IMG/VR virus record: IMGVR_UViG_3300030376_007431
Location: 1 to 64,000 of that record
Strand: one strand, 5' to 3'
From: a virus
Taxonomy: Duplodnaviria > Caudoviricetes
Length of the DNA: 64,000 nt
Shown: one piece after another, positions 23,295 to 64,000 of the stretch
How positions within the stretch are numbered: the stretch's first letter is position 1
How the letters are laid out: each line of letters begins with the position of its first letter
Translations under genes and position numbers: made by a program
Notes under the pieces: generated by a model
What the model saw: only the letters and a program-made list of their open reading frames with translations
What the model was told of the DNA's origin: nothing
Databases searched by the model: none

Positions 23295-23428
23295 GATTTG
23301 TTGAGTTTAAACAGTCTGGAACATCGCCAGTAAAATATAGACTAGAAATTAATTCAGAAGAAGCCGAAAAAGTTAAGGACTTATTGCAGGAAATTATTGA
23401 GAGATTAAGTAAAAATGAAAAAAACTAA
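23291..23428 (+). CDS. 45-aa hypothetical protein between nrdA and nrdB (not in ORF track)
   Basis: ATGA overlap with the nrdA stop; MRFVEFKQSGTSPVKYRLEINSEEAEKVKDLLQEIIERLSKNEKN*. Confidence 0.55.
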   Translation: MRFVEFKQSGTSPVKYRLEINSEEAEKVKDLLQEIIERLSKNEKN

Positions 23429-24422: not shown

Positions 24423-24436
24423 TAAGGTTTTAAAAA

Positions 24437-49927: not shown

Positions 49928-51595
49928 ATGAGAAGAAAAAAAATACTAATCTGCACCGAAGCCCACTGGCTACCCACCGGCTACTCCGTGTATACCAAAG
50001 AAGTTTTAGGTAGACTTAGCAGAAACCCTAATTTTGAAATAGCTGAGTTAGCCTGCTATGTCACACAAGAAGAGGCTGATGGCCAAAACGTACCTTGGAA
50101 AATTATAGCTAATCAACCACTAAAAAATGGTCCGGAGTGGGAAGTATATAAATCAAGTCCTTCTAGTGAATTCGGGGAGTTCAAGTTTAACGAAACTTTG
50201 ATTGACTTTATGCCAGATTTTGTTATGGATATAAGAGACTGGTGGATGTTGGAGTTCGTTGGTCGTACGCTTTTCCGAGATTTCTTTCAATGGGCAATAA
50301 TGCCGGCTGTTGACGCTCGCCCTCAAAACAAACAATGGGTAGATACGTACTCATCCGCAGATGCAGTATTTGCATATTCTGAGTTTGGTAGGGATGTATT
50401 GCTAGGGCAGTCGGATGGAATGAATTTTATAGATGTCGCATCACCTTGCGCAAGTCCTGTTTTTCATCCACCGGAAAGCAAAAGTGAACACAAGAAGCTT
50501 GGAGGTATAGATCCAGATTCTTTCGTTATAGGTACGGTAATGAGAAACCAAAGGAGAAAGCTCTACCCAGACTTATTTGAAGTATTCGCAAACTTCTTAG
50601 ATGCAACCAAAGCAAACAACGCCTACTTATATTGCCACACCGCTTATCCAGATTTAGGCTGGGAAATACCGCAACTTCTTCATGAATACGGTATCGGAGA
50701 CAGGGTATTATTTACATACAGATGTAAAAAATGTGGCACAATTACTCCAAAGCTATTCAGTGACGTAATATCTCACTGTTCTCACTGCGGAAGTTACGAA
50801 TCTCAGATGATTGGAATAAATAACAAAGCAACTGAAGAGGATCTAGCGGAAGTCTATAGGCTATTCGATGTCTATATTCAGTATGCTAATAGCGAAGGTT
50901 TTGGGATGCCTCAACTAGAGGCGACCAGTACTGGATTACCCTTGATAACGGTTGATTATTCAGCAATGGAGTCGGTGGGAAATAAGATTGGTGCATTCAA
51001 AGTTCCTGTCATGAAACTACACACCGAGTGTGAAACTGGATGCTTACGAGCTATACCAGACAATGATGCAGCAATGTTGTATCTCATGAAACTTTATTCG
51101 CTTGGGAATGAGGCTGTGGTTGATTCCGGCGAAAGAATGAGACAGGCAACGTTAGAAAACTATAGCTGGGATACGACGGCACAGAAGTGGGGTGACTATT
51201 TTGACAGAACTCCCGTGCTTGACCTGAAGAAAACATGGCTTTCTCCGCCAAGAATGTTTAACCCAGCTAAGGAAATACCTGCGAATTTAACAACAATCAA
51301 AGATCAAGTTGACTTTTTGTTTGCTAATGTTCTTGGGCGCCCAGAGTGGATAGGAAATTATTTTTGGAAGAGAACAGTTAGAGACCTCACATACAAGAGT
51401 ACAATGGCCAGCACTGCTGTTGACTTTCATTTTAGTGAATCTCATACTGGCTCTCATGATGTAAGAGCTTGGAGTCGCTTTACTTTGCAAGATGCACATG
51501 AGAGTTTTATTAAGGCGGCAGAAGTAAACAATCAATGGGAACGCTATCGCCTAGAAAAAGTTGAAGCTATAATGTCTGGAGGAGTCAGCAGATAA
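49928..51595 (+). CDS. GT4-like glycosyltransferase with zinc-ribbon insertion
   Basis: TGYSVY, GTVMRNQRRK, EGFGMPQLEA; inserted CKKC...CSHC. Confidence 0.85.
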   Translation: MRRKKILICTEAHWLPTGYSVYTKEVLGRLSRNPNFEIAELACYVTQEEADGQNVPWKIIANQPLKNGPEWEVYKSSPSSEFGEFKFNETLIDFMPDFVMDIRDWWMLEFVGRTLFRDFFQWAIMPAVDARPQNKQWVDTYSSADAVFAYSEFGRDVLLGQSDGMNFIDVASPCASPVFHPPESKSEHKKLGGIDPDSFVIGTVMRNQRRKLYPDLFEVFANFLDATKANNAYLYCHTAYPDLGWEIPQLLHEYGIGDRVLFTYRCKKCGTITPKLFSDVISHCSHCGSYESQMIGINNKATEEDLAEVYRLFDVYIQYANSEGFGMPQLEATSTGLPLITVDYSAMESVGNKIGAFKVPVMKLHTECETGCLRAIPDNDAAMLYLMKLYSLGNEAVVDSGERMRQATLENYSWDTTAQKWGDYFDRTPVLDLKKTWLSPPRMFNPAKEIPANLTTIKDQVDFLFANVLGRPEWIGNYFWKRTVRDLTYKSTMASTAVDFHFSESHTGSHDVRAWSRFTLQDAHESFIKAAEVNNQWERYRLEKVEAIMSGGVSR

Positions 51596-52707
51596 TGAAG
51601 GTATTATATATAGGAAATTACAATGACCAGACCGGCTGGGGTGATGCAGCATTAAATAATATATTAGCCCTAGATTCCGCAGGCGTAGATGTTGTACCTA
51701 GATCTATTTCTTTTAATAATTCTCATATTGCGAATGAACTAAGAATCAAACAGCTAGAACTTAATAGCACAAAAGGGTGCGATATATGTATTCAGCATAC
51801 ACTACCTAACCTTTATTCTTATCATGAGGGTTTAAAAAATATAGGCGTATTCTATACCGAAACTCTAACTTTCACTGAGAGTATGTGGCACAAACATATA
51901 AACCTATTAGATGAAGTGTGGGTAGCTAATAGCCAAATGGCGGAGGCGTGTCAAAAAAGTTTGGTCAACATTCCAGTGAGTATTGCTCCACTATCTTTAG
52001 ATATCGCAGATTACGGAGATAGATATAAAGATTGCGCGACTATGGATAACATCGAGTCCACATTTAATTTTTGCTTTGTTGGAGAGATGATACACAGAAA
52101 AAACATTGAAGGCTTGCTCAGAGCATTCCATACAGAGTTTCACCCGTCTGAACCTGTTAATCTCTTCCTAAAAGTAACAAAGTCAGGATACAATTCACAA
52201 GACACACTATCTTATTTTGAAGCAATGGCGGCCAACGTAAAAAGAAACTTAAAGATAAGAGACAATTATAAAGAGGAAGTAGTTGTTTCCGGACATTTAG
52301 AAAAAAGACACCTAAAGTCGCTTATGGCAAAATGCAACTGTTTTGTTATGCCTAGTTTTGGAGAAGCTTGGTGCATACCTGCCTTAGAAGCCATGGCTTT
52401 GGCTATGCCTGTCATATACACTAAGGGGACTGGCATGGATGATTTTTGTTACGGTTGGAGCGTTGACTCTAGACCTTCACCATGCTATGGAGCTACTGAC
52501 TCTCTTGGTGGCCTCTACACATCAAAGACTAAATGGGTAGAGCCTGATATTGAGTCGCTAGCTTCGTGCATGAGGGTCGCATTTGAGACGTATAAAAATT
52601 CACCTCAGAAATATAGCGAGATGCAGCAGAACGCAAGAAGCCGCGCTGTGAAATACGACCGCCTATCTATAGGTAGAAAATTAAAGGAGTTACTGCAAAA
52701 TGGCTAA
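51595..52707 (+). CDS. GT4-like glycosyltransferase
   Basis: GEMIHRKNIEGL, FVMPSFGEAWCIPALEAMA. Confidence 0.88.
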   Translation: MKVLYIGNYNDQTGWGDAALNNILALDSAGVDVVPRSISFNNSHIANELRIKQLELNSTKGCDICIQHTLPNLYSYHEGLKNIGVFYTETLTFTESMWHKHINLLDEVWVANSQMAEACQKSLVNIPVSIAPLSLDIADYGDRYKDCATMDNIESTFNFCFVGEMIHRKNIEGLLRAFHTEFHPSEPVNLFLKVTKSGYNSQDTLSYFEAMAANVKRNLKIRDNYKEEVVVSGHLEKRHLKSLMAKCNCFVMPSFGEAWCIPALEAMALAMPVIYTKGTGMDDFCYGWSVDSRPSPCYGATDSLGGLYTSKTKWVEPDIESLASCMRVAFETYKNSPQKYSEMQQNARSRAVKYDRLSIGRKLKELLQNG

Positions 52708-53731
52708 TGCTACACAGCAATCCATAAGGTCTATAATTAGAAGATCTCAACTGACACCTCAGCAAAAGTTAAACATCTTGACGTTTTGCACACATGAAAG
52801 ATACGAGCAGAACCTATGCAAGACAGGTCATAATTTCTATGCTATCAACCAAGGCAAGACTTGGAATAAAGATTTTGGAGTCATACCAGACAATTACCAT
52901 GAAATAGATGTATTACCTTGGCACGTTGGGTTTGACTTAGTATTATGCCACACTAGCTGTGATAGGTTAATAACAGCCAAAAAAATCCAGAACATGTATA
53001 ATATACCTATAATCCGGCATACTCATGTGCTGCCAGATGTAAGGCTTGATGTACAGAACCAAATACATTCATTCAATAGCATTGAGGTTGATCACAATAG
53101 TTTTATATCCAATTACAATAGATCTGCGTGGGGATATGGCCACGAAAATACGTCCTTCATAGAGCATGGGATTGACTATAAGTTTTGGTCTGATAATTCC
53201 AATGACGAAAAAGAAAGGGAGAATGTCTGTATCTCGGTCGTTAACCAGTGGCCAAATAGAGATTGGTGCTGCGGGTGGAATTTATGGAAAGAAACAGTAG
53301 GATTTTCGGAAGAGACCATGCAGGCATCGCTGCCAATAAAGGTTCTTGGCGATAGTCCCGGACTATCCGAAGCCGCCCCTAGTATAGAATCCCTGAGAGG
53401 CTCATATAGGGCTTCTTCTGTTTTCCTTAATACTTCTCTCCATTCACCAGTACCTACCGTCCTGATGGAAGCTATGGCTTCTGGATGCGCTATAGTAAGC
53501 ACTAACAACTGCATGATTCCAGAAATAATCCAGCATGGTGAGAACGGTCTGCTTGCGGATACCGCAGATGAGCTACGCGCATCTTGCCAGTATCTGCTTA
53601 ACAATCCAGACGAATCGAGAAGACTGGGCCAAAATGCACAAGACACAATAAAAGAAAAATACAATCTAGAAAGATTCGTACATAACTGGAATGAGTTATT
53701 TTTCGGAACAATAGATAATTATAGGAAATAA
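52700..53731 (+). CDS. GT4-like glycosyltransferase
   Basis: VFLNTS..SPVPTVLMEAMASG...IQHGENGLL. Confidence 0.88.
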   Translation: MANATQQSIRSIIRRSQLTPQQKLNILTFCTHERYEQNLCKTGHNFYAINQGKTWNKDFGVIPDNYHEIDVLPWHVGFDLVLCHTSCDRLITAKKIQNMYNIPIIRHTHVLPDVRLDVQNQIHSFNSIEVDHNSFISNYNRSAWGYGHENTSFIEHGIDYKFWSDNSNDEKERENVCISVVNQWPNRDWCCGWNLWKETVGFSEETMQASLPIKVLGDSPGLSEAAPSIESLRGSYRASSVFLNTSLHSPVPTVLMEAMASGCAIVSTNNCMIPEIIQHGENGLLADTADELRASCQYLLNNPDESRRLGQNAQDTIKEKYNLERFVHNWNELFFGTIDNYRK

Positions 53732-53733
53732 TA

Positions 53734-54156
53734 ATGAGAATCATACTATCCAACACAGAGCCAAGTTTAAAAAACTATACTTGGATTAAAGACATTTCTT
53801 CTTTAGATGAAGTTGTTGATGACGCTGAAGCCACTGAGATTATAGTTGATAATTTTTTATCTTCTTTTAACTTCTCATTTGCTGGTGAGGCTCTCAAGAA
53901 AATACTATCTAAACTAAGAACTAGAGGGACTATTACAGTTTACGTTAAAGATATTTCTTTAATCTGCCATAATGTGGCGTCAGTTGCTTTAGATATATCT
54001 GATATAAACACACTATTCTTTGAGGATAGTCAGGCTATAGCTTCTGTTCTTAATTTGTCTAATGTAGACGATATTCTAACTCAGTGTGGATTAACAGTTA
54101 AAGAAAAACATCTAAATATTGAAACATGCCAAGGCATTATTGTAGCAGCGAGGTAA
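53734..54156 (+). CDS. Degenerate class I methyltransferase-like fragment
   Basis: ATEIIVDNFLSSF...ALKKILSKLRTRGTITV resembles the D.I...LEH...L.E..RVLKPGG motif, without motif I. Confidence 0.35.
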   Translation: MRIILSNTEPSLKNYTWIKDISSLDEVVDDAEATEIIVDNFLSSFNFSFAGEALKKILSKLRTRGTITVYVKDISLICHNVASVALDISDINTLFFEDSQAIASVLNLSNVDDILTQCGLTVKEKHLNIETCQGIIVAAR

Positions 54157-54160
54157 AACT

Positions 54161-55009
54161 ATGGAAGATCTAAAAGAGCAAGCATGCAACCAAATCGAGA
54201 TGAGATGCAAAGGCTGTGTGTTCATCACCAATATAGAACAAGAGGCGTCAACCAAACAAATCGGATGTCGGCTAGGAAGATCGGACGTGTTGTGTCCAGA
54301 CTCGACTGGGGAAACAGACGAAGATGGAAATTTTAGCTTTGTATTTGATAGATTCTGCAACTGCTATAGACCAAAGGCTTGGGCAGATAGACTAAGCGCA
54401 GATGTTATACAGGAAGAGGAAGTACTAGAAGAGGTTGTCCCACGAGTTGGTCTGTTCCTAATCTTTGACAAATCATTTAAGGAGCAAGGAATCGCCAAAC
54501 TGTTAGAGACCATCGGAGACGTAAAATCACAAACATTATCTAAATTTAGATATGTTGTTGTGCTTAATCCTGACGTGGCATACAATCAAGAAATACAGGA
54601 AATTTTAGCTGATAGTTTTGACTTTGAACAAACTGAGTACCACTTAATCCAAGTATTGTCAGATGATGTTGAGCCGTATCATCTGGATGACGCTATTGGG
54701 TTTGCGAAAAATGGCTGGGTCTTAGTTACTACTATAGGTCAGAATATTCCTCATGATTTCATTGAGAAAATGAATAATAGAATAAATAGAGATCTTCTCC
54801 GTACAGCAATTATTAAGCCGTATGACGGACTAAATGGTCTGGTATTCCAGTCCAGCCTGTATAAATTTTTAGATGGCAATAAAAGAGTGATCCACTCAGA
54901 AACAGGAGAAGAAATTCCGTTCAGTTTTCTTGATCGTGTTAATGGCATGGAACAGAGTGACGACAATATCGTATCCAAATGGGAGGACTTTGTAAATGAC
55001 CCTTCCTAA
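54161..55009 (+). CDS. Hypothetical protein (Cys-rich N-terminus, possible degenerate GT-A)
   Basis: CKGC...C...C..Y N-terminus; located in the glycan island. Confidence 0.45.
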   Translation: MEDLKEQACNQIEMRCKGCVFITNIEQEASTKQIGCRLGRSDVLCPDSTGETDEDGNFSFVFDRFCNCYRPKAWADRLSADVIQEEEVLEEVVPRVGLFLIFDKSFKEQGIAKLLETIGDVKSQTLSKFRYVVVLNPDVAYNQEIQEILADSFDFEQTEYHLIQVLSDDVEPYHLDDAIGFAKNGWVLVTTIGQNIPHDFIEKMNNRINRDLLRTAIIKPYDGLNGLVFQSSLYKFLDGNKRVIHSETGEEIPFSFLDRVNGMEQSDDNIVSKWEDFVNDPS

Positions 55010-55811
55010 TGTGGCAATTATAATTAGTAACTATAACTACGGAGACTATGTTTTAGATGCTATATCAAGCGCTTTGAAGCAAGACTATGAAGGTCAGATG
55101 CGAATTTATGTAGTAGACGATGGCTCTTCTGATGGATCTTACCAGAAGCTATTAGACTACGCAGGGGAAGACATATCCTGCATAACGGACGCTTATCAGA
55201 AGACAGAACCATATTATAATGGCGAGATGAGGTCATTTCAGTGCAGCGACCTGAACCTGTGGTGTTACCATATAGAAAATTCAGGCGCGAGTACAGCCAG
55301 AAATGTTGGCATATGGGAAGCTTGGGAATGGGCAGACATCTTTGCTATTCTTGACGCGGATGACACTTATCGAAGTGACAAGGTTCGTAAACAAGTTGCG
55401 AAACTCACAAAGCATAAAGAGGTGGGAGTAACGTATTCAGACTATATAATCCATAAAACCTATAACGGCAATGACTACTCTAAATACGAGTACAAGTATC
55501 CTTACTCTAGAAAAGAGCTTGACAACCAATGTATAGTTCATAGCGCAGGGCTTATTAAGAAAGAGTATTTGGAGATGATAATGTTGTCAAATCAAGAGTT
55601 TTATGACAGTAGACTGCACGGGCCGGGAAGCAAAGCATTCATAGGATGTACCGAAGATTACGACCTATGGTTAAGATTAGCCAAACACTGTATTATAACA
55701 CACATACCCGAGCCTCTTTCCTTTGTTCGTGAGACTGGCCAAAACCAATCTATGAAAATGACAGCCGATATATTTCAAGAAAACGCTAAAATTTTGAGGC
55801 AAAATGTCTAG
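54996..55811 (+). CDS. GT2-family glycosyltransferase
   Basis: IIISNYNYG, VVDDGSSDGS, GASTARNVG, ILDADD, EDYDLWLRL. Confidence 0.93.
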   Translation: MTLPNVAIIISNYNYGDYVLDAISSALKQDYEGQMRIYVVDDGSSDGSYQKLLDYAGEDISCITDAYQKTEPYYNGEMRSFQCSDLNLWCYHIENSGASTARNVGIWEAWEWADIFAILDADDTYRSDKVRKQVAKLTKHKEVGVTYSDYIIHKTYNGNDYSKYEYKYPYSRKELDNQCIVHSAGLIKKEYLEMIMLSNQEFYDSRLHGPGSKAFIGCTEDYDLWLRLAKHCIITHIPEPLSFVRETGQNQSMKMTADIFQENAKILRQNV

Positions 55812-56514
55812 ATTTATTCATAAAATAAAAGGCACTCCGAGATCATCTCCGGTGGCTATACTTTCCGCAGGGATAGGTTCAAGAATAAAATCTCACGAAC
55901 CTAGAGCCTTACTTAAGGTTGGAAATAAATTACTTTTAGAGCACCAAATAGAGGTAATCAACAAGGCATTTCCTCAACCGGATGTAATTGTGGGTGTAGG
56001 ATACGAGCCTTGGAAGATAATGAAAAGAGTATCGGAGTCTGCGAGATTTGTCGAGAATCAATTATATGAGACATCTGGTAGTTTTGAAACCCTTAGACTT
56101 ATAGTCAACAATACCAAAGAAGACAACATTATCTTTTTTCACGGGGATCTATACTTCAAACAGCAATTTTTTCAAAGCTTTGACTATTCAAAATCATTTG
56201 TTGTATGTGATAATACAAACAATATGTCGGACAAAGAAGTTGGAGTTACTGAGAATAGACAAAAAGCTACAATATTTTCTTATGGACTTGAGAATAAATG
56301 GTGCCAAATTGCCTTTTTAAAAAACAAGGAGATGACCATACTTCGTCAAATATGCCAGAAACCAAGTCAAGAAATGAAGTCGCTATTGACTTTTGAGATT
56401 CTTAATGCTATAATTAACAAAGGAGGCGTTTTCAATATACACTACGCTCCGGAAAACTCAATATTGGAAATTGATTCCATGAAGGATTTGAATAATGAAA
56501 ATTTTAATTTCTAG
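55804..56514 (+). CDS. Nucleotidyltransferase (MobA/LicC-like NTP transferase)
   Basis: ILSAGIGSRI...PRALL, FFHGDL, EIDS..DL. Confidence 0.75.
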   Translation: MSRFIHKIKGTPRSSPVAILSAGIGSRIKSHEPRALLKVGNKLLLEHQIEVINKAFPQPDVIVGVGYEPWKIMKRVSESARFVENQLYETSGSFETLRLIVNNTKEDNIIFFHGDLYFKQQFFQSFDYSKSFVVCDNTNNMSDKEVGVTENRQKATIFSYGLENKWCQIAFLKNKEMTILRQICQKPSQEMKSLLTFEILNAIINKGGVFNIHYAPENSILEIDSMKDLNNENFNF

Positions 56515-57538
56515 CGACGGTATGCATGCCCATTATTTTCAAAGGGCTGCATGGCTAAAAGGTTTTAACGAAGCCGGTATACAAACGCTACTATGGGACT
56601 GCAAGACGACGCCAGCTTTTGATGTGTTTGATACCTTTGAACCAGATGTGTTTTTGGGGCAAACCTATAACCTAAATAAACCTCTACTTAAATGCATCTA
56701 TGAAAGGCCACATTTAAAGATAGGTCTTAGATCGGGAGATTGGGGAGACTTCGCACCTGACCCAAGATTCAATGTCCTCCATGCATCAGAGCAAGATATA
56801 AGAATACTTGAAAAGCTTAAGCAAGAGACGGGCAAGCCTGATTTTGTACATATTCATTATGCTCAAGATGCTGTAGACCAAACGCACTCTTCATACAAAA
56901 ACATTGGAATAGAAGCCAAATCTATTATAATGTGTGCAGATGTTCATGAGTATTCTGGATCATCTTATGATGAATCATTAGCCTGCGACATAGGTTTTGT
57001 TGGTGGATATTGGCCCCATAAGGGTATCATAATTGACAAGTATCTCACCCCGATGTGTCACCCTGTAGGTAAATATAACATTAAGATTTTTGGCAACCAA
57101 CCTTGGCATGTCAACCAATACTGTGGATTCATAAAGGACAACAAAGTAAAAGATCTTTTCAAGTCCGCAAAGGTGTCTCCTAATCTGAGCGAGCCCCATG
57201 CACATGAATACGGTTTTGATATTAATGAGAGATGTTTTAAAATATTGTGTGCGGGTGGATTCTGTGTGGCTGATAATGTAACAGCAATAAAGAAAATCTT
57301 TAATGGAAATGGTGTTGTTTTTGCAGAGTCACCCGATGACTTTACCAGCAAGATAGATCATTATATAAATAATCCCGAAGAAAGAAACGAGCTCGCTTCT
57401 CAAGGTCAGAAATTTGTTCTGTCAAATCATACAAACTTTCACAGGGTTTCGGAGATACTGAAGCTCTTTGGTTTTGAAGTAGAGGCTGCGAAAATTTTGA
57501 ACAGATGGGACGATATTAGGAAGACAGCTAATGTATAA
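56495..57538 (+). CDS. CgeB-like GT-B glycosyltransferase
   Basis: DIGFVGG, AKVSPNL, NERCFKILCAGGFCVAD. Confidence 0.75.
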   Translation: MKILISSDGMHAHYFQRAAWLKGFNEAGIQTLLWDCKTTPAFDVFDTFEPDVFLGQTYNLNKPLLKCIYERPHLKIGLRSGDWGDFAPDPRFNVLHASEQDIRILEKLKQETGKPDFVHIHYAQDAVDQTHSSYKNIGIEAKSIIMCADVHEYSGSSYDESLACDIGFVGGYWPHKGIIIDKYLTPMCHPVGKYNIKIFGNQPWHVNQYCGFIKDNKVKDLFKSAKVSPNLSEPHAHEYGFDINERCFKILCAGGFCVADNVTAIKKIFNGNGVVFAESPDDFTSKIDHYINNPEERNELASQGQKFVLSNHTNFHRVSEILKLFGFEVEAAKILNRWDDIRKTANV

Positions 57539-58490
57539 AGACGACAAAATTTTAATAACCGGAGGAACAGGCTTTTTAGGGAAGGCTGTTGTGAACACGC
57601 TTAGTTCGCAAGGCTACAACAATTTGCTACCCATAGGTAGGTCTGTGGATCTGACGTGTTGCGAGGAAACGTTTGATTTTTTTGAAAAGCAAAACCCTGA
57701 TGTGGTAATTCATCTTGCTGCTACTGTTGGCGGCATAGGTGCAAATAAAGAAAATCCCGGACTGTTCATGTACAACAATTTGGTCATGGGAACCAATACT
57801 ATTGAAGCTTCTAGACTTAACAAAGTTAAGAAATTTGTAATGGTTGGAACTGTTTGCGCTTATCCTAAATTCACACCTGTGCCATTTAAAGAGGACGATA
57901 TCTGGAATGGATACCCCGAAGAAACAAACGCGCCTTATGGTATTGCCAAGAAATCGCTTATGCGTTTGGTGCAATCGTATCATGAGCAATACAACTTTAA
58001 CGGCGTTAACCTCATTCCTGTTAATATGTATGGTCCTCACGATAACTTTGATCCTGCCATAAGCCATGTTATTCCAGCACTCATCCTTAAGTTCTATAAG
58101 GCTTTAAAATTTGATCTAGAAGCGGTGGAGGTTTGGGGTACTGGTGAAGCTAGTAGAGAGTTTTTATATGTAGAAGACTGTGCTCACGCTGTGCATTTAG
58201 CTCTTGAAAAGGATATTTCCCCAGAACCAATTAATATAGGGACTGGTGGTGAGATAAAAATAAAGTATCTAGCCCACACAATCGCAGAAGTTATGGGTTA
58301 TAAAGGTAGTATATATTTTAACTCCAGCTATCCAGATGGACAGCCCCGAAGACAGTTAGACATAAGCAGAGCTAAAGAAAGACTATATTATGAACCAAAG
58401 GTAGATCTCCTAGATGGGCTTGAGGCTACGGTAGACTGGTTTATGGAAAACAAGGAGGACTTTGATGTTTACCTTAACCGTATTCAGTAA
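57531..58490 (+). CDS. fcl: GDP-L-fucose synthase
   Basis: TGGTGFLG, HLAATVGGIGAN, GTVCAYPK, YGIAKK, NMYGPHDNF, SHVIPAL, WGTG..SREFLYVED, DGQPRR. Confidence 0.93.
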   Translation: MYKDDKILITGGTGFLGKAVVNTLSSQGYNNLLPIGRSVDLTCCEETFDFFEKQNPDVVIHLAATVGGIGANKENPGLFMYNNLVMGTNTIEASRLNKVKKFVMVGTVCAYPKFTPVPFKEDDIWNGYPEETNAPYGIAKKSLMRLVQSYHEQYNFNGVNLIPVNMYGPHDNFDPAISHVIPALILKFYKALKFDLEAVEVWGTGEASREFLYVEDCAHAVHLALEKDISPEPINIGTGGEIKIKYLAHTIAEVMGYKGSIYFNSSYPDGQPRRQLDISRAKERLYYEPKVDLLDGLEATVDWFMENKEDFDVYLNRIQ

Positions 58491-59373
58491 AGATAGAGCT
58501 TTACAGCTTGATCTCACACTAAATAGTGTTAAAGAGAATTTAGCATTTTTTGATAATATAATTGTTTTATATAATATTTCATCACCCTCATTTCATAAAG
58601 GTTATGAGATACTGATGAAGCAACATCCTGACGTAAAGTTTATCCGTCAAAAGGGTAGCATATTTAGAAATATATCCTCTATAATTGATGACTGCGAAAA
58701 CGAATACTTTTGCATGTGTACAGATGATATGATAGCCTACACCTCTTATAGGAGCAGCGTAAGCATACATAAAGCATTTCAAACGCCTCTGCCTCATGAG
58801 GCTGGCCACGCTATAAATATATCTATGTTCTCGTTGAGGAATGGACGAAATATAACGAAAAGAAATGCTGCGGGGAGAACGATACCTGATCATATGCCTC
58901 TATTCCTATCAGACGGAGACACGGACTGCATCTACTGGAGCTGGACAAGTATTCCATATGGAGGGTATTGGGGATATCCACTTTCTACTGACGGACATAT
59001 ATATAAGACTAAAACAATAGCTAATGTATTTGAGGAACTTGTAGTCTTAGACAAATACTACTCAACAAAGGGAATTCCAAGATCAAAGAATGCTTGGCCC
59101 CAAACACCAAATGTAATAGAAAGCAAGATGCAGAGGGCTATCTATGACCTTGAAACAGTATGTGCGTGTCCGCCCCGTAGCTGTTTTGTAAACAGTCCCA
59201 ATAATAGAGTTCAAGATGTGGCTGCGAACTCTCACGGCGACAAGTATTCTTATAGCCAACAGGATTTAAATGATAAATTTTTAGATGGCGCTAGGATAGA
59301 CTTAAATAAACTTCATTTTGGTTTTATCGAGTGTCCACATACAGAGATAGACATATTAGAGGGTTTAGTATGA
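58462..59373 (+). CDS. GT-A-like hypothetical glycosyltransferase
   Basis: VFSKDRALQL...CMCTDD (DxD-like); glycan-island context. Confidence 0.5.
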   Translation: MMFTLTVFSKDRALQLDLTLNSVKENLAFFDNIIVLYNISSPSFHKGYEILMKQHPDVKFIRQKGSIFRNISSIIDDCENEYFCMCTDDMIAYTSYRSSVSIHKAFQTPLPHEAGHAINISMFSLRNGRNITKRNAAGRTIPDHMPLFLSDGDTDCIYWSWTSIPYGGYWGYPLSTDGHIYKTKTIANVFEELVVLDKYYSTKGIPRSKNAWPQTPNVIESKMQRAIYDLETVCACPPRSCFVNSPNNRVQDVAANSHGDKYSYSQQDLNDKFLDGARIDLNKLHFGFIECPHTEIDILEGLV

Positions 59374-60176
59374 GTTTTTTTGAAATGTGCCAAGTAGAAA
59401 GTTCTCCATTTGATATCCAGTTTGCGAAGCAAGATCCTGACTGGAATATGGTGAGGGACGCTTATGATAACAATCTTTCTAGGGACGATCAAGACTGTGA
59501 AATACCCAAGATAATTCATTTTATATGGGTGGGAAGTAAGCTTCCAGAAAAGTATGTTGAAATTATTGAGGGGTGGAAACATTACAATCCAGACTTCGAG
59601 ATTTGGCTTTGGGATGACGAGAAGGTAGAAACTTTTTTGCCGCAGATGTTTAACAAAGACTTGTATTTACAGGCGCCAAGCTTTGGCAATAAATCCGACA
59701 TCTTAAGGTATGAGATACTTAAGCGATACGGAGGCGTATATGCAGACACTGATTTTGTCTGCCTTTCTAGTTTTGCTCATGCTCATCGTAAGTATTGCTT
59801 TTACGCTGGCATATTATATGAAAAGCCAGTTCAGCTAGGCAACGGAATTATAGCTGCTGTGCCCAACCATCCTATCGTAGATATATGTATACGTCAAATG
59901 AGATTAGATAACCCTTGGGGAATACAGTGTCCGCAGACGCTTGTGCTTTATCAGACTGGGCCTTGGGCTTTGACTAAGAGTGTCTTGCATTATATGAAAC
60001 ATGTGGGCGATGAAGGAATAATGATATATCCAACAACGAGTTTCCACGCTTTCCCAGCTGTTCTCAGGCATGAAGCTACCGACGAACTAATTGAGTCTTA
60101 CTATAGACCTTGGAGTATGGCGTGTCATCTCTGGCACTCAAGCTGGCAACCATCATCAGAACATTATAACGGATAA
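59370..60176 (+). CDS. DxD sugar-binding glycosyltransferase (GT32/Och1-like)
   Basis: IPKIIHFIW, SDILRYEILKRYGGVYADTD, TGPWAL. Confidence 0.9.
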   Translation: MSFFEMCQVESSPFDIQFAKQDPDWNMVRDAYDNNLSRDDQDCEIPKIIHFIWVGSKLPEKYVEIIEGWKHYNPDFEIWLWDDEKVETFLPQMFNKDLYLQAPSFGNKSDILRYEILKRYGGVYADTDFVCLSSFAHAHRKYCFYAGILYEKPVQLGNGIIAAVPNHPIVDICIRQMRLDNPWGIQCPQTLVLYQTGPWALTKSVLHYMKHVGDEGIMIYPTTSFHAFPAVLRHEATDELIESYYRPWSMACHLWHSSWQPSSEHYNG

Positions 60177-60182
60177 ATTAAA

Positions 60183-61001
60183 ATGTCAGAAATAATAAAC
60201 TTAGCTAAAGACAAGCCAGACACTTATGTATACCAGCAAGCCGCTGAAATATTATGTGACACACTTGAAAAAGATTACTCTTTCGTTATACAGTTGTGGG
60301 ATCACGAGAAACCAAAAGATACAAAATATCCTAAAGTTTTGATCTCAACTTCTGACGAAAAGCATGGTGTGCCTGTCGAAGCTCAAGATGACTCCTATGC
60401 GCACATTTTCAAACAGTACGCCCCAATGCTTGATATGAAAAATCCTACTTCAGTCAGAAGAGAATGGGATGGGAAAGTTAGTCCGCTTCCACTCTGTTCT
60501 CTACAGGGCTTTAAGCCAAACCCAATAAACATACATGAGCGAAAGTATGATTGGTCTTGGATGGGTCAGTTCGATCCATATACTAGAGTGGCGTTCAGAA
60601 ATTCTGTCAGTGATTTGCAAACAAAAGAACATACATGCAAAATCCTTTGGTATGAAGGATGGAATAATGGAAGTTCGATAGAAGAATATGCCGATGTTAT
60701 GAGCAATACCAAAATAGCCTTAGTGCCTAATGGCTCAGCCAGCTTTGAAAGTTTTAGATTTTTTGAGGCTGCAATGGCGGGATGTGTAATAGTTAGCCAG
60801 CAAATGCCGATTGTTCCAATGTACAATGTGGCACCGACCATAACTGTGGATAATAATTGGAGTAATCTCCCAGATGTTATAGACATGATCTTGGACAACA
60901 AAGAAGAGATGGAGTATTATTCGCACGCAAGCAAAGCGTGGTATGATTACTTCTGCTCTCCAGAAGGACTGGCTTACTACATGAAGAAAAGGTTGGTTTG
61001 A
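60183..61001 (+). CDS. Exostosin-like (GT47-like) glycosyltransferase
   Basis: YADVMSNTKIALVPNG...SFRFFEAAMAGCVIV. Confidence 0.7.
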   Translation: MSEIINLAKDKPDTYVYQQAAEILCDTLEKDYSFVIQLWDHEKPKDTKYPKVLISTSDEKHGVPVEAQDDSYAHIFKQYAPMLDMKNPTSVRREWDGKVSPLPLCSLQGFKPNPINIHERKYDWSWMGQFDPYTRVAFRNSVSDLQTKEHTCKILWYEGWNNGSSIEEYADVMSNTKIALVPNGSASFESFRFFEAAMAGCVIVSQQMPIVPMYNVAPTITVDNNWSNLPDVIDMILDNKEEMEYYSHASKAWYDYFCSPEGLAYYMKKRLV

Positions 61002-61005
61002 CTAT

Positions 61006-61770
61006 ATGGATTTTGTTGACGGAGAAAAGTTCCAGTCAGCTTGTGACTTTGAGCTTGGTCAAGAAATGCCCGAAAGACCAGAGTTGGTGATGTATGCGCC
61101 TTCAGAAAGCTACCTCGAAGCGCTGGTGTTTATTAAACAGAACACATCTACACGATTCAAGCTTGTCACTCATAATGGTGACATCGAGATTCATTTAGAT
61201 GATAGAGTTCTGCCGGACAATCTTATACACTGGTACGCGCAAAACCTGTGCGTCAAATCGAATAGAATATCGCCACTTCCTATAGCAATGGAGAACACTC
61301 ACTGGCATCCGACAAAGCGGTCAGCAATACTTAGCGTAGAACAGCAGTCAGAAAGGTTTCTTAAGCCGTTCACTCAATTTAATCCCCGCACACATCCATC
61401 TAGGTTGGATCTAGTAAGATTGATACAGCAAGGAGAAATTGATGTTGATTTTGCTCCTTCAATTAACGGGACGGGGTTTGATCAATATGTATACAATCTA
61501 TCTAAATACGCATTTTGTATTTGCCCGAGGGGTAACGGCATTGATACTCATAGGATATGGGAAGCCTTGCATATGGGCTGTGTGCCAATAGTAAAGAGGC
61601 ATGTTACGCACGAATGTTTGTTAGATTTGCCGGTCTTGTTCGTAGATGACTGGAGAGAAATAACTCATGAAAAGCTTGTGCAATTTATTCAACAAATACC
61701 CAACAATATATATAACATGCAGAAACTTTCTTTTTCCTACTGGGAGAATCTGATAAAAAATGACATCTAA
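61006..61770 (+). CDS. Exostosin-like (GT47-like) glycosyltransferase
   Basis: FCICPRGNGIDTHRIWEALHMGCVPIV. Confidence 0.75.
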   Translation: MDFVDGEKFQSACDFELGQEMPERPELVMYAPSESYLEALVFIKQNTSTRFKLVTHNGDIEIHLDDRVLPDNLIHWYAQNLCVKSNRISPLPIAMENTHWHPTKRSAILSVEQQSERFLKPFTQFNPRTHPSRLDLVRLIQQGEIDVDFAPSINGTGFDQYVYNLSKYAFCICPRGNGIDTHRIWEALHMGCVPIVKRHVTHECLLDLPVLFVDDWREITHEKLVQFIQQIPNNIYNMQKLSFSYWENLIKNDI

Positions 61771-62650
61771 GTTGAGAATTAAATTTGATAACTTTTGGGG
61801 TGGGTTTCCCCTGTATGACAATATAATAACAGTAGCTCTAAGTCTAAAACACGATGTAGAGATTGTTCAGCATGACCCAGATATTTTAGTGCATCAAGGC
61901 CAAACTTCCCACAAGCATGATGGCGCAATTACAATAGCTTGGTTTATAGAGTCTATGAATAGAATAGGGGAACCTGACTATAGTAAATGTGACTATTCTT
62001 TTAACAGTTGTAATCTTGATGATGAGAGAAACTATAGGATTCCCTTTTGGTCTACACAAATAAACTGGAATGGGGCTCCTGCGCATGACCTTAATCGAGG
62101 ACCAACATACTATATATCAATAGACGAGTTATCTAATAGGCAGATAGCTAATAGAGACAGGTTGTGTTGCTCAGTAGCGTCTGGAACGCTTGGTAGGAGA
62201 GCAGAGTTTTATCCTTACATATCCTCAAGAATGGATGTAGCACATGGAGGAGACTTCCTAAGAAATACAACAGAGATGATTGAAAAGCCGGGAAACAGTG
62301 ACTACTTAGAGAAGATAGAGTTTATTTCTAAATTTAAATCGAACCTATGTTTTGAGAACGATGACAGACAAGGATACGTATGTGAGAAGATACTACATGC
62401 TTTTTATGCTGGTTGTCTGCCCATATACTGGGGACCAGCAAATGTAGGTGAAGACTTCAACAAGAAAGCGTTTATTGATGTTAGTGATTTTGAGTCTAGC
62501 GAAGAGGCTGTTAATTATATACACGATGTGCTTTTAAACGATACAAAATTATTAGAATATCTAGAGCAACCAGTATTTGAAAATGGACAGGTGCCATATC
62601 ACTCAACACCGGAGTCACTATTAGAGTTCTTAGAGAAAAAGGGTATATAA
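61760..62650 (+). CDS. GT10 alpha-1,3/4-fucosyltransferase-like protein
   Basis: K.EFISKFKSNLCFEN...GYVCEKILHAFYAGCLPIYWG (GT10 motif). Confidence 0.88.
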   Translation: MTSKLRIKFDNFWGGFPLYDNIITVALSLKHDVEIVQHDPDILVHQGQTSHKHDGAITIAWFIESMNRIGEPDYSKCDYSFNSCNLDDERNYRIPFWSTQINWNGAPAHDLNRGPTYYISIDELSNRQIANRDRLCCSVASGTLGRRAEFYPYISSRMDVAHGGDFLRNTTEMIEKPGNSDYLEKIEFISKFKSNLCFENDDRQGYVCEKILHAFYAGCLPIYWGPANVGEDFNKKAFIDVSDFESSEEAVNYIHDVLLNDTKLLEYLEQPVFENGQVPYHSTPESLLEFLEKKGI

Positions 62651-63225
62651 TGGCTGGAGAATTTTCTTACAACCGCAAAAAGTATTTCTTTCTTCATATC
62701 CCGAAGACTGGCGGTAAGATGTGGGAGCATGTATTTAGCGGTATTGGGCTGACTTCTGGACATGGTTTCGTAGAATCTAAACCAGAAGGATATTCATTTA
62801 CTGTAATAAGAAACCCATTTGATAGATTGGTCAGCTGTTTCTATTACCTCAAGGCTGGCGGGTGCTGGTCGGGTGACGCAAATGATGCGTTAAAGTATGA
62901 TATTACAAACAATACTTTTGAAGACTGGCTCAAGCTAGCTAGCAAAAACCCTCAGCACTATCTAGAACAGCAACACGTTATGCCTATGATGCGTAGAATT
63001 GGCAAAAAAGAAAACTTCGACCATATTGGATTATTTGAAGATTTAGAACAGGAAACCAGAGATCTATACTCTATTATATATGGCCATAAAATTGATGAAG
63101 TGCCTGTGATTAACAAAAGCGCCCATCGCCACTTTGAAGATTGTTACACCGAAGAAACAAAAGCTATAGTTTCAGAACTATACAAGGATGATATAAAACT
63201 ATATGAGGAGCTATTAAATGCATAA
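62650..63225 (+). CDS. Carbohydrate sulfotransferase (Sulfotransfer_2-like)
   Basis: 5'-PSB FLHIPKTGG; 3'-PB FTVIRNPFDRLVSCFYY. Confidence 0.88.
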   Translation: MAGEFSYNRKKYFFLHIPKTGGKMWEHVFSGIGLTSGHGFVESKPEGYSFTVIRNPFDRLVSCFYYLKAGGCWSGDANDALKYDITNNTFEDWLKLASKNPQHYLEQQHVMPMMRRIGKKENFDHIGLFEDLEQETRDLYSIIYGHKIDEVPVINKSAHRHFEDCYTEETKAIVSELYKDDIKLYEELLNA

Positions 63226-63625
63226 GATATATAAAGACGAGAAGCTTTACCACTGCTACTTCAACGCTGACGAGTACCAAGAGGGTAGGTTTGATGCTAC
63301 CGACGCTGGAGAATATTTGCAGTGCGCTATTATAAATATGGATGACGGCAAGAAGTTTGATCCGCATGTCCATATCCCTTGTGAAAGAACAACTGACACA
63401 ACTCAAGAGGCTTGGGTTGTGCTTAAGGGCAAGATAAAAATAACATATTATGACGAAGATAAAAATCAAATGGACGAGCCGGCTATAGTTTCTGCCGGAG
63501 GGTGTACTATAAGTTTTTGGGGTGGTCATAAATATGAATGTCTAGAAGACGGAACTGTAGTCTATGAATTTAAGACTGGCCCGTACTTTGGCAAAGATGC
63601 TGATAAGGTAGTGTTTGATGCGTAA
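63218..63625 (+). CDS. WbuC-like cupin-fold protein
   Basis: PHVH...QEAWVVLKG...H.Y..LEDG..VYEFK.GPY. Confidence 0.75.
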   Translation: MHKIYKDEKLYHCYFNADEYQEGRFDATDAGEYLQCAIINMDDGKKFDPHVHIPCERTTDTTQEAWVVLKGKIKITYYDEDKNQMDEPAIVSAGGCTISFWGGHKYECLEDGTVVYEFKTGPYFGKDADKVVFDA

Positions 63626-64000
63626 TATTGTGCAATATAGTCTGCCTCGAACAGGTTCTACACTTATCCGTAGAGTGTTATATAGTCTGTTCCCTGAAAG
63701 CGAAGCCCCTTCACAGCATCCTCCGCTCCATTATAACTCCCGTGACGCTTTGATTGTGAGCTCATGCAGGTATCCACTGGATGTTTTGGTATCGTATGCT
63801 AGAGTACACCACTGTGAACAAGGTTATGAACTCGGTGGGATTGATGAGGATTTACTTGCACATCATGCAAAAAGGATAAAAACACTATATCAATGGTATT
63901 TTAAAGACTTAGACCATTGTAGGGGCGGCATTCTACAAATCAAATATGAAAAATTTTGGAACAACTATGATTATATTTTCGATAATCTTGAGACCTTTCT
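63618..64000 (+). CDS. Second sulfotransferase, 3'-truncated by the window edge (not in ORF track)
   Basis: Hand translation: MRNIVQYSLPRTGSTLIRRVL (PAPS loop)...CRYPLDVLVSY (3'-PB)...IKYEKF; frame open to the end. Confidence 0.8.
   Translation, partial: MRNIVQYSLPRTGSTLIRRVLYSLFPESEAPSQHPPLHYNSRDALIVSSCRYPLDVLVSYARVHHCEQGYELGGIDEDLLAHHAKRIKTLYQWYFKDLDHCRGGILQIKYEKFWNNYDYIFDNLETF

Follow-up and report, generated by a model that had tools for sequence, protein, structure and literature searches.

A glycan island with a clade-wide core and exchangeable distal cassettes in an uncultured marine phage

A ~150-kb uncultured marine phage carries an 18.5-kb island of glycan genes, which raises the question of what so long a gene run builds, and on which acceptor. 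The 64-kb stretch of DNA that we analyzed (the window) contains the island from its start at 49,928; the island ends at 68,393 in the same numbering, which is also that of the contig past position 64,000, and 4.4 kb of it lies beyond the window's edge. Its 22 genes all lie on one strand (+) and are closely packed, with inter-gene gaps between -43 and +6 nt. About 12 of them encode glycosyltransferase-like proteins; the rest include Fcl and Gmd, a WbuC cupin, a MobA-like NTP-transferase, a protein in which FkbM and DegT are fused, a pair of methyltransferases and a pair of sulfotransferases whose PAPS motifs are intact. A sequence-only reading of the window had listed the genes up to its edge and expected more beyond it. 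Every ORF it named is present on the + strand in the order claimed, glycan genes do run on to 68,393, and two ORFs absent from its list, of 140 aa (53734) and 282 aa (54161), complete the inventory. The assignment to a phage is upheld by rIIA/B, RNR, DnaB/DnaG, a split DnaE, SSB and a sigma factor, and by TerL in relatives. An assembly artefact was rejected, because at least eight independent IMG/VR contigs carry the island in synteny; near-identical sequence occurs in 20 runs from 12 studies, one of which is possibly the source of this DNA. The proximal genes and their left neighbor are as follows:

49445-49924, +, sigma-70 region-2 protein, left neighbor of the island (PF04542, E 6e-11)
49928-51595, +, GT4a, a 555-aa GT-B glycosyltransferase, the island's anchor and hallmark (PF00534, 33.6 bits)
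51595-52707, +, GT4b (PF00534, 51.8 bits; in 41/41 diverged relatives)
52700-53731, +, GT4c (PF00534, 59 bits; in 36/41 relatives)
53734-54156, +, 140-aa protein (no Pfam or PHROG match; in 39/41 relatives)
54161-55009, +, 282-aa protein with a Cys-rich N-terminus (no Pfam match; in 37/41 relatives)
54996-55811, +, GT2 glycosyltransferase (PF00535, 65.8 bits)
55804-56514, +, MobA-like NTP-transferase, NTP_transf_3 (PF12804, 36.2 bits; in 41/41 relatives)
56495-57538, +, Glyco_trans_1_2 (CgeB-like) GT-B transferase (PF13524, 86 bits)
57531-58490, +, Fcl, GDP-L-fucose synthase-type epimerase/reductase (full-length match to NF047922, 299 bits, under its 500-bit equivalog cut-off; E. coli GMER 1bsv, E 3e-67)
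58462-59373, +, 303-aa GT-A-like protein, final core gene (no Pfam/HMM match; in 36/41 relatives)

The sigma factor gene overlaps SSB (49135-49473), and 3 nt separate it from GT4a. The GT4a protein carries a CxxC..CxxC zinc ribbon insert and an additional C-terminal helical domain, and its predicted model (pLDDT 86.7) has as its top structural match a glycosyltransferase of chlorovirus NY-2A (3oy2, TM 0.82); solved folds nearby include sucrose-phosphate synthase, MshA, BshA and trehalose-phosphate synthase. Its homologues form 1789 protein clusters and occur on at least 566 IMG/VR contigs, with no cultured relative. Among 185,579 species genomes, it was found only on MAG contigs that bear 13 incompatible taxon labels, some of them phage-genome-sized; GT4a is phage-specific, and the MAG matches are mis-binned contigs. 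As leads only, ESM-atlas neighbors suggest a GT-A/GT2-like fold for the 282-aa protein (neighbors GT2-like and mostly viral) and place the 303-aa protein, which has a DxD-like CTDDM motif, in a GT2-like cluster (1278 members, 86% viral). The MobA-like protein, which GlmU N-terminal profiles match weakly, is by its sequence a candidate sugar-1-phosphate nucleotidylyltransferase.

Of 36 diverged relatives, 35 have these ten core genes in strictly colinear order behind the split DnaE/SSB genes. Each core gene is present in 35-41 of 41 relatives, a set restricted to less than 80% identity. Median identity among relatives is 35-61% for the core genes versus 56-57% for DnaE. The divergence of the core is thus comparable to that of DnaE, and the block behaves like an essential phage module. 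Its conservation makes the proximal core a hallmark of a very large clade of phages. The remaining genes and the right flank are:

59331-60176, +, GT32 (DXD sugar-binding) transferase, accessory (PF04488, 55.4 bits)
60183-61001, +, RXYLT1_C/GT47-like transferase a, a weak assignment (PF24785, 24 bits, below the 27-bit cut-off, E 3e-5)
61006-61770, +, RXYLT1_C/GT47-like transferase b (PF24785, 33.1 bits, above the cut-off)
61760-62650, +, GT10 alpha-1,3/4-fucosyltransferase, accessory (PF00852, 51.2 bits; FucT_N, 30.5 bits)
62650-63225, +, Sulfotransfer_2, minimal (191 aa), carbohydrate-type, accessory (PF03567, 51.5 bits)
63218-63625, +, WbuC-family cupin (TIGR04366, 42 bits, equal to the cut-off)
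63615-64,241, +, second sulfotransferase, Sulfotransfer_3/1-like, 208 aa, crossing the window edge (PF13469, 29 bits)
64,226-64,789 and 64,786-65,370, +, two Methyltransf_11 genes (PF08241, 43.5 and 34.9 bits)
65,367-66,725, +, FkbM methyltransferase fused to a DegT-type aminotransferase (PF05050, 44.6 bits; PF01041, 67.7 bits)
66,722-67,696, +, Gmd (PF16363, 365 bits; TIGR01472, 354 bits, cut-off 415)
67,698-68,393, +, GT25-like transferase, final glycan gene (phrog_2835, E 2.6e-9)
68,353-70,719, conserved non-glycan right flank (167-aa ORF, HNH-like, 257-aa ORF, Zn-ribbon protein)
70,738-70,767, GC-rich 13-bp hairpin in the convergent gap ahead of the minus-strand structural module

The distal fucosyl, sulfo and methyl part is accessory and varies between close relatives; the non-glycan right flank is retained in relatives with a short island. 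GT10 occurs in nine of 20 large clade records and Sulfotransfer_2 in six, the second sulfotransferase is confined to G000 and G007 among the 20, and neither GT10 nor any sulfotransferase is present in the two complete genomes. L010 alone shares the DegT half of the fusion protein, and G002 carries a DUF6492 gene and a 290-aa ORF in place of GT32. Between G000 and G007, the GT10-sulfotransferase-cupin segment is 97-100% identical over a 77-90% background, and looks to have been recently exchanged between the two lineages.

We now turn to the chemistry that these genes would support. Fcl retains the catalytic residues of E. coli GMER (T/S107, C109, Y136, K140, H179). GT10 aligns with the H. pylori FucT 2nzw (E 7e-21) and keeps the FEN...EK motif, with R147, E199, N200, E209 and K210 invariant. 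These intact residues support the proposed route of fucose from Fcl to GT10. Supported as well is the proposed use of PAPS by the sulfotransferases, both of which have intact 5'-PSB and 3'-PB motifs: HIPKTG and RNPxxRxxS, invariant, in Sulfotransfer_2, and LPRTGST and RYPLDVLVS in the second enzyme, whose match to SULT4A1 is weak. The closest structures to the Sulfotransfer_2 model (pLDDT 92.9) are GAG O-sulfotransferases (Z 11.7 for HS 2-O-sulfotransferase and 10.7 for HS 6-O-sulfotransferase). The DegT part of the fusion has a PLP-lysine-like SFQFQK..GRGG motif and is without the C-terminal domain. The gmd gene, which the sequence-only reading had suggested seeking elsewhere in the genome, lies just past the window edge, and another leads the late operon, adjoining TerL, in all three near-complete genomes. 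The further glycan genes that it had placed elsewhere in the window were all located:

2-418, +, PMM, eukaryote-type phosphomannomutase (donor supply), truncated by the contig start (PF03332, 82.5 bits, profile positions 93-197)
1182-1634, CTP_transf_like (cytidylyltransferase)
7535, epimerase
11643-16168, GT4-like, radical-SAM and GT4 genes
36318, GT47-like gene

By contrast with gmd, neither a manC-type nor a PAPS-synthesis gene was found, including in three relatives at least 94% complete, so the phage relies on its host for both. All island products are predicted to be soluble, no ORF having a hydrophobic 19-mer above KD 1.48, and neither G002 (94% complete) nor G009 (complete, terminally repeated) has a polytopic membrane ORF large enough to be a flippase or polymerase. 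Priming transferases of the Bac_transf and WecA/MraY types are absent from G000, G002, G007, G008 and G009, and no priming transferase, flippase, polymerase or ligase was found in the three near-complete genomes. There is likewise no processive synthase or export gene in the island or in the complete relatives. A single GT10 among ~12 differing transferases, together with the lack of polymerase and export genes, points to a defined hetero-oligosaccharide and not to the fucan, or fucoidan-like polysaccharide, that had been proposed.

The explanation that we favor, at a probability of roughly 45%, is that the island is a virus-autonomous system that glycosylates, in the cytoplasm, an acceptor made by the phage, probably its virion proteins. 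The phage PMM would yield mannose-1-phosphate, and GDP-mannose would come from host ManC or from the phage's MobA-like NTP-transferase. Gmd and Fcl, identified by sequence, would then convert GDP-mannose to GDP-L-fucose, and the DegT half of the fusion may, speculatively, channel the Gmd product into a 4-amino-6-deoxy sugar. About 12 soluble transferases from different families, making one linkage apiece, would assemble a defined, branched hetero-oligosaccharide instead of a polymer; SAM methyltransferases would O-methylate this chain, and the two sulfotransferases would O-sulfate it with host PAPS. The acceptor, most likely a phage-made protein and probably one exposed on the virion, would receive its glycan as the particle assembles or earlier, needing neither a lipid carrier nor export. 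The proximal ten genes would supply the clade-wide core machinery, and the exchangeable distal cassettes would vary the outer epitopes. In favor of this model are the lack of membrane and export genes, the DnaE-like conservation of the core, the restriction of GT4a to phages, the tie to late genes given by the Gmd beside TerL, and the variation of accessory cassettes between close relatives. By analogy, the model parallels glycosylation in chloroviruses and mimivirus and virion glycosylation in mycobacteriophages.

Several observations count against glycosylation of virion proteins. The island shares its strand with the early/replication genes and has no space for a promoter of its own, and only the second Gmd belongs to the late operon. 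LPS and O-antigen loci typically contain the GT4, GT2, GT25, GT32 and WbuC families; the transferases of such loci are soluble too and could borrow the host's lipid carrier and flippase. Enzymes structurally close to GT4a have substrates as diverse as sugars, small molecules and lipids, so the GT4a fold gives no pointer to a protein acceptor, and the structural proteins that could be recognized in G000 are not rich in Ser/Thr. The main rival, a possible though doubtful one, is remodeling of the host envelope: working at the cytoplasmic face, soluble transferases would extend or re-decorate a lipid-linked host glycan, be it of the LPS core, O-antigen, capsule or S-layer, with the host supplying the priming enzyme, flippase and ligase. 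The island's families, Gmd/Fcl included, are those of O-antigen loci, it is contiguous and co-oriented with the early/replication genes, and similar clusters have been read this way in print (PMC1079782, PMC7029224, PMC9602691). If so, it could provide superinfection exclusion, reduce adsorption of progeny to debris or help to evade grazers. However, none of the priming transferase, flippase, polymerase and ligase genes was found in the three near-complete genomes, a ten-gene core conserved like DnaE across a broad clade is hard to square with host-specific acceptors, and GT4a has no cellular homologues beyond the mis-binned contigs.

We consider it unlikely that the acceptor is another non-exported molecule, whether a soluble small-molecule glycoside, a glycolipid or a host cytoplasmic protein, serving as a compatible solute or store, as a signaling or toxin-like glycoside, or to inactivate a host factor. 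The small-molecule enzymes among GT4a's nearest solved folds and the solubility of every island enzyme agree with it, but twelve transferases with methylation and sulfation are too much for a simple metabolite, the cassettes vary as surface antigens do, and no export or tailoring genes of the glycoside natural-product type were seen. Hypermodification of DNA, in which transferases beside the replisome genes would glycosylate modified bases and so evade restriction, is improbable. Phage transferases do build mono- to trisaccharides on DNA (10.1101/2023.12.21.572611; PMC13326640), the core is joined clade-wide to the DnaE/exonuclease/SSB block, GT4a has a zinc ribbon, and genes for a dNMP kinase and a dUTPase are present in the phage. 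Yet the known routes require a ThyA homologue, or a C5-methyltransferase with a TET-like oxygenase, and neither Thymidylat_synt nor DNA_methylase was found in G000, G002, G007, G008 or G009; Tet_JBP gave no match either, in a search whose positive control also gave none. An array of ~12 transferases with Fcl/Gmd, methyl- and sulfotransferases also goes far beyond any known DNA glycan. Least credible to us is the original proposal of a sulfated, fucoidan-like fucan on the virion or host surface, acting as bait for hosts that forage on polysaccharides and edited by DUF1501 proteins. Genes for making the fucose donor do occur alongside a FucT and two sulfotransferases of the carbohydrate type, and a second GT10 paralogue adjoins DUF1501 paralogues in the related contigs L026-L029. 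Against it, the island has one GT10 and neither polymerase nor processive synthase, its GT10 and sulfotransferases are accessory, and the complete genome G009 has the core island with no DUF1501, GT10 or sulfotransferase gene at all. We found no support for the polymer or the bait role, and no direct support for the build-and-edit role of DUF1501.

Glycan clusters in marine phages have already been published, and the conservation of the core is our main new result. Long runs of sugar-nucleotide and glycosyltransferase genes are likewise found in the lytic marine phages P-SSM2 of Prochlorococcus (24 'LPS genes'; PMC1079782) and S-SCSM1 of Synechococcus (Gmd, Fcl, three FucTs and five further glycosyltransferases, with no sulfotransferase reported; PMC9602691), and in the host recognition cluster of pelagimyophages (PMC7029224). 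The island has no sequence kinship with these clusters: its GT10 is at most 32% identical to that of any deposited phage, GT4a is missing from deposited phages, and TerL is ~26% identical. Moreover, the myophage clusters are described as hypervariable AMG regions, whereas half of this island is a conserved core joined to a replisome module. Bacterial O-antigen and capsule loci, Wzx/Wzy- or ABC-dependent, share the GT4, GT2, GT25, GT32, Gmd/Fcl, WbuC and DegT families, the placing of conserved donor-synthesis genes beside divergent transferases, and the swapping of cassettes between lineages; unlike them, the island has no priming phosphoglycosyltransferase, flippase, polymerase, chain-length regulator or ABC transporter.

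To our knowledge, no fucose-synthesis or sulfotransferase genes accompany virion glycosylation in mycobacteriophages. Phage transferases there are proposed to modify, in the cytoplasm, capsid and tail proteins of the phage itself (Freeman et al. 2023, as cited in PMC12582341), and soluble phage-encoded enzymes proposed to act on the virion are common to both systems. Those phages have few glycosyltransferase genes, an actinobacterial host and a chemically demonstrated modification. The Megavirinae and chloroviruses, eukaryotic giant viruses and not tailed phages, also encode their own nucleotide-sugar synthesis (Gmd and GMER in PBCV-1) along with numerous soluble glycosyltransferases and methyltransferases, and their glycan clusters are clade-specific, some with sulfate-metabolism genes that suggest sulfated sugars (PMC9614988); the best structural neighbor of the modeled GT4a is itself a chlorovirus enzyme. 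Their sulfate genes are of the SAT/APS-kinase type, whereas here sulfotransferases occur without PAPS synthesis, and their capsid and fibril acceptors have been shown experimentally. Because the core is conserved as a hallmark of a very large clade, the island probably serves the phage itself, most likely by coating its particle.

The source record is linear and 85,624 nt long, with an estimated completeness of 55% (CheckV), and the window covers its bases 1–64,000. Its gene content identifies the source as a tailed phage and not a eukaryotic virus: the phage encodes rIIA/rIIB, a class I RNR, RecA, DnaB, DnaG, a dNMP kinase, a PD-(D/E)XK nuclease, PhoH, a dUTPase and a DnaE split around an exonuclease, together with SSB and a sigma-70 region-2 protein, and its relatives carry the N-terminal domain of a T4-type TerL. 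A giant eukaryotic virus was considered and rejected, given a replisome of bacterial type together with the sigma factor, rIIA/B and TerL. Because TerL is at most ~26% identical to that of any deposited phage, the source has no cultured relative. Contigs of the same clade (L178–L193, up to 152–158 kb) occur in MAGs labelled Flavobacteriales, SAR202, Verrucomicrobiales, Paceibacteria, Promethearchaeota, Hydrogenophaga and others, and one NCBI sulfotransferase-family protein is labelled Porticoccaceae. The MAG labels are mutually incompatible across clade members and were rejected as host evidence; the clade contigs are likely MAG contamination.

The sequence-only reading described a contiguous run of glycosyltransferase, nucleotide-sugar and sulfotransferase genes that continued past the window edge. 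Every gene in its list was recovered in the same order, two ORFs of 140 and 282 aa missing from that list were added, and the same operon-like array indeed goes on beyond position 64,000. The features discussed below are as follows.

Features of the island and its surroundings (contig numbering)
2–418: eukaryote-type phosphomannomutase (PMM) gene, inside which the contig starts
1182–1634: CTP_transf_like cytidylyltransferase, 0.8 kb downstream of PMM
9591–10292: PAP2-family phosphatase
10669–16168: second glycan-like cluster
49928 to 59373: core block of ten genes, from the glycosyltransferase GT4a to a 303-aa GT-A-like gene
57531–58490: Fcl, GDP-fucose synthase
61760–62650: GT10 fucosyltransferase
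62650–63225: Sulfotransfer_2 protein, 191 aa
63615–64241: second sulfotransferase, complete only beyond the window edge
After it, in order: two Methyltransf_11 genes; FkbM-DegT fusion; Gmd (66722–67696); GT25-like transferase
68,393: island end, followed by four conserved non-glycan genes
70,738–70,767: strong hairpin after these right-flank genes, facing the minus-strand structural module

Since non-glycan genes follow position 68,393, the island proper spans 18.5 kb and 22 genes, with neighbouring genes spaced by −43 to +6 nt. About 12 of the products resemble glycosyltransferases. Eight of them exceed Pfam cut-offs, two fall below cut-off or are backed only by a PHROG or weak Pfam match, and for two the protein atlas gives the only lead. 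Within the island, terminator-like sites occurred at chance level and promoter-like sites showed a modest excess (76 versus a shuffled mean of 56.7, sd 7.4); the consensus scan gave no usable site of either kind.

We examined the enzymes of fucose synthesis and transfer. The gene at 61760–62650 encodes a GT10 alpha-1,3/4-fucosyltransferase, predicted to transfer fucose from GDP-fucose. It matches PF00852 at 51.2 bits (cut-off 23.9) and the FucT_N family PF18025 at 30.5 bits (cut-off 27.2), and it carries the FEN....Y.TEK motif, where LCFENDDRQGYVCEKI aligns to NLCFENTQGYGYVTEKI of the Helicobacter pylori alpha-1,3-fucosyltransferase (2nzw). Its R147 aligns to R195 of that enzyme, and R147, E199, N200, E209 and K210 are invariant in 14 homologues. 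At least 447 viral contigs carry GT10 relatives, and on many of them Gmd and Fcl are close by. Fcl scores 299 bits against NF047922, under the 500-bit equivalog cut-off; this is by far its best family, with positions 2–307 of 308 aligned. It aligns end to end to Escherichia coli GMER (1bsv, E = 3e-67), keeps that enzyme's Ser/Thr107-Tyr136-Lys140 triad (T107 here) and its epimerization residues Cys109 and His179, and its best 18 PDB matches are all GDP-fucose synthases, ahead of any other family. Gmd covers all 332 profile positions of PF16363 at 365 bits and scores 354 bits against the TIGR01472 equivalog (cut-off 415 bits). Together with PMM, cut by the contig start, Gmd and Fcl would form a nearly complete donor pathway. 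Thus the gmd gene that the sequence-only reading sought outside the window is present beyond its edge; the manC and PAPS-synthesis genes named with it were not found, as neither the source record nor its near-complete relatives contain a ManC-type nucleotidyltransferase, an APS kinase or an ATP sulfurylase. The host would consequently supply PAPS and GDP-mannose, although the MobA-like NTP-transferase might make the latter.

The 191-aa Sulfotransfer_2 protein contains both the 5′-PSB loop (PKxGxT) and the 3′-PB motif (RxPxxRxxS), and its HIPKTG and RNPFDRLVS (RNPxxRxxS) stretches are invariant over 23 homologues, down to 25% identity. Its structural model (pLDDT 92.9) gave weak Foldseek matches, every one of them a sulfotransferase. 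With VIA, the model aligned to heparan sulfate (HS) 2-O-sulfotransferase with a Z of 11.7 (173 residues, rmsd 3.6) and to HS 6-O-sulfotransferase with a Z of 10.7, and tyrosylprotein sulfotransferases scored lower (Z = 7.0). The modeled fold is therefore closest to glycan-acting enzymes, a common fold being no proof of a common acceptor. The assignment of the second sulfotransferase is weaker: it matches PF13469 at 29 bits, just over the 27-bit cut-off, and carries both PAPS motifs (LPRTGST and RYPLDVLVS); its sole PDB match is a weak one, to SULT4A1 (E = 0.015). Small Sulfotransfer_2 relatives are found on at least 228 viral contigs and in almost no cultured phages, and a literature search on phage-encoded sulfotransferases returned nothing relevant. 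GAG-type sulfotransferases are an addition to the phage repertoire.

We now turn to the conservation of the island. It is syntenic along its entire length in at least eight IMG/VR contigs, and 20 sequencing runs from 12 marine, seawater, plankton or sponge studies dated 2014–2025 contain sequence nearly identical to it; one of these studies may be the source of this DNA, and none of the listed runs is an RNA run. The first island gene, GT4a, encodes a GT-B enzyme of 555 aa that contains a CxxC..CxxC ribbon as an insertion and has an additional helical domain. Its homologues fill 1789 protein clusters, and at least 566 IMG/VR contigs, which reach 155 kb, carry the gene. Deposited phages lack it, and among 185,579 species genomes it was found only on MAG contigs with mutually incompatible taxon labels, some of which are 152–158 kb long and are thus mis-binned phages. 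The GT4a fold does not discriminate between acceptors, and a match to the SRRP O-GlcNAc transferase GtfA was discarded because it spans only the generic nucleotide-binding motif. Across 41 loci less than 80% identical and with at least 9 kb of downstream sequence, each of the ten core genes is present in 35–41 loci. The core block is strictly colinear in 35 of 36 loci, always directly after DnaE-exo-DnaE-SSB, and its genes have median identities of 35–61%, versus 56–57% for DnaE. In a small subclade, the same flanks enclose a short island made up of GT4a and GT4b with the 140-aa gene and the NTP-transferase. Two features are new here: a core that is linked to the replisome throughout the clade and whose anchor enzyme is phage-only, and a GAG-type sulfotransferase fold within a fully described donor-to-decoration pathway.

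The distal part of the island is accessory. Of 20 large records from the clade, 9 have GT10, 6 have Sulfotransfer_2 and 2 have Sulfotransfer_3, and none of the three is present in the two complete genomes. Close relatives differ in their cassettes: GT32 is swapped for a DUF6492 gene and a 290-aa ORF, additional methyltransferases appear, and the DegT half of the FkbM-DegT gene, a methyltransferase fused to a DegT-type aminotransferase without its C-terminal domain, is present or absent. The source phage and its relative G007 share 77–90% nucleotide identity overall and 97–100% across GT10-sulfotransferase-cupin; window positions 61500–63500 and 50000–51000 are both 97–100% identical, and 65.4–66.4 kb is not alignable at all. 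This pattern indicates recent recombination of island segments. A Gmd gene also adjoins TerL at the head of the late operon in all three near-complete genomes. This second Gmd (401–409 bits) and a conserved 265–289-aa ORF lie just upstream of TerL (G002, forward strand, 17927–19844; G009, 23195–25129; also G007 and G008); the partner ORF has no Pfam or PDB sequence match, and the region is missing from the source record.

Other glycan-related genes lie elsewhere in the clade. The second glycan-like cluster (10669–16168) consists of a 325-aa ORF and a GT4-like gene, then a gene for an 841-aa protein that has radical-SAM and SPASM stretches (two of each), then a GT4; G002 keeps the cluster, with a Sulfotransfer_2 gene (reverse complement, 22274–22867) inserted between the GT4-like and radical-SAM genes. 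The sequence-only reading had suggested that the island could form a build-and-edit system with the DUF1501 genes. The only physical DUF1501-glycan gene link observed is in contigs L026–L029 (e.g. IMGVR_UViG_3300032086_003519), where DUF1501 paralogues 83–93% identical to those of the source phage have among them an FkbM-like gene and a second GT10 paralogue, which is 35% identical.

To assess export, we used two rebuilt relatives colinear with the source phage, G002 (144,965 nt, 94% complete) and G009 (148,313 nt, terminal repeats, 100% complete). A crude hydropathy scan found no hydrophobic 19-mer above a KD of 1.48 in any island ORF and no polytopic membrane ORF of flippase or polymerase size in G002 or G009, where the only ORFs with four or more hydrophobic segments are a 157-aa protein and the giant fibre-like ORFs. 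Priming phosphoglycosyltransferases of families PF02397 (Bac_transf, WbaP/PglC) and PF00953 (WecA/MraY) are absent from the source record and from G002, G007, G008 and G009, with working positive controls. In contrast to a Wzx/Wzy- or ABC-dependent O-antigen or capsule locus, then, neither the initiating phosphoglycosyltransferase nor a polytopic flippase, polymerase or ABC permease was found. The PAP2-family phosphatase at 9591–10292 has no hydrophobic segment (maximum KD 0.53), and so is a soluble PAP2 and not a membrane undecaprenyl-pyrophosphate or lipid-A phosphatase.

Among structural proteins, giant ORFs of G009 (2022, 2461 and 879 aa) contain 23–24% Ser+Thr, ~12% Gly and only 3–4% Lys+Glu; the two largest (748–14212) adjoin a capsid-like gene and the 879-aa ORF (143174–145813) lies at the opposite record end. 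They resemble fibres and are candidate O-glycosylation substrates. Searches with the giant minus-strand ORFs gave no Pfam, PHROG or PDB sequence match. Ser/Thr-richness is not decisive as an acceptor sign, as the visible structural proteins of the source phage are ordinary. A 332–334-aa capsid-like protein of the structural module (G002, reverse complement, 116423–117427; G009, 14370–15368) has no Pfam match and is unusually well conserved, being 86% identical between the two genomes, against 72% for TerL and ~55% for DnaE. A search for the Gp23 family gave no match, and its positive control was silent as well.

The computed evidence comprises gene content, intact catalytic and cofactor motifs, product solubility, the absence of export genes, and a core/accessory structure. 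The island's enzymes would assemble a branched oligosaccharide of defined structure that contains fucose and is methylated and sulfated. The fucoidan-like polysaccharide proposed by the sequence-only reading is not borne out: only one of a dozen distinct transferases is a fucosyltransferase and a polymerase is lacking, so the product is probably not a fucan polymer. We favor a phage-made protein as the acceptor, probably on the virion, with a probability of roughly 0.45, because the core behaves as would an essential phage module passed on vertically, cells have no counterpart of its anchor enzyme, and no lipid-carrier or export step is encoded. Genomic hallmarks of virus-autonomous virion glycosylation were found, namely virus-encoded donor synthesis and soluble transferases with no cellular export machinery. 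Chlorovirus- and mimivirus-type glycan clusters, which are clade-specific and sometimes contain sulfate-metabolism genes (PMC9614988), follow the same logic, as does mycobacteriophage virion glycosylation (cited in PMC12582341).

The main competing explanation is that the island remodels the host envelope, which is the published reading of similar clusters in P-SSM2 (PMC1079782), S-SCSM1 (PMC9602691) and pelagimyophages (PMC7029224). O-antigen transferases are likewise soluble and could use host machinery, and we consider this explanation a serious one, if on balance rather doubtful. Glycosylation of the phage's DNA is unlikely. The enzyme set is far too large. Known phage DNA-glycosylation clusters (Pyle et al. 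2023; Lee et al. 2026) obtain hydroxylated pyrimidine through either a ThyA homologue or a C5-methyltransferase paired with a TET-like oxygenase, and neither of these sources was found: five or six records contain no ThyA homologue (PF00303) and no C5-methyltransferase (PF00145), with working positive controls, and Tet_JBP (PF12851, TET-like 5mYOX oxygenase) was unmatched, its positive control being silent too.

Glycan gene clusters have been known in marine phages since 2005, and to our knowledge nobody has shown what they modify. Fucose synthesis and fucosyltransferases in a marine phage have already been published for S-SCSM1 (PMC9602691) and, with the wide distribution of GT10 and Sulfotransfer_2 on viral contigs, this makes the island an instance of a known but unstudied kind. 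The clade offers an unusually clean handle on the target: its ten-gene core is conserved like DNA polymerase, hundreds of viral contigs carry the anchor enzyme, which is phage-only, and complete genomes show no export machinery, all of which together argues for a glycan that serves the virus itself. We tentatively propose, as a possibility somewhat short of an even chance, that a cosmopolitan clade of ~150-kb marine phages, none of them cultured, has in the core block an obligatory machine for virion glycosylation, and that its exchangeable outer cassettes (fucose, methyl, sulfate) set a lineage 'glyco-serotype', here a sulfated fucosylated coat. If so, the core block would be the bacteriophage counterpart of giant-virus glycosylation, and the coat could affect adsorption, the tendency of particles to stick to marine gels, or recognition by polysaccharide-foraging bacteria. 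If marine virions bear sulfated fucosylated glycans, the consequences would extend to adsorption, to the aggregation of particles and the export of carbon, and to the way in which bacteria specialized on polysaccharides encounter their phages.
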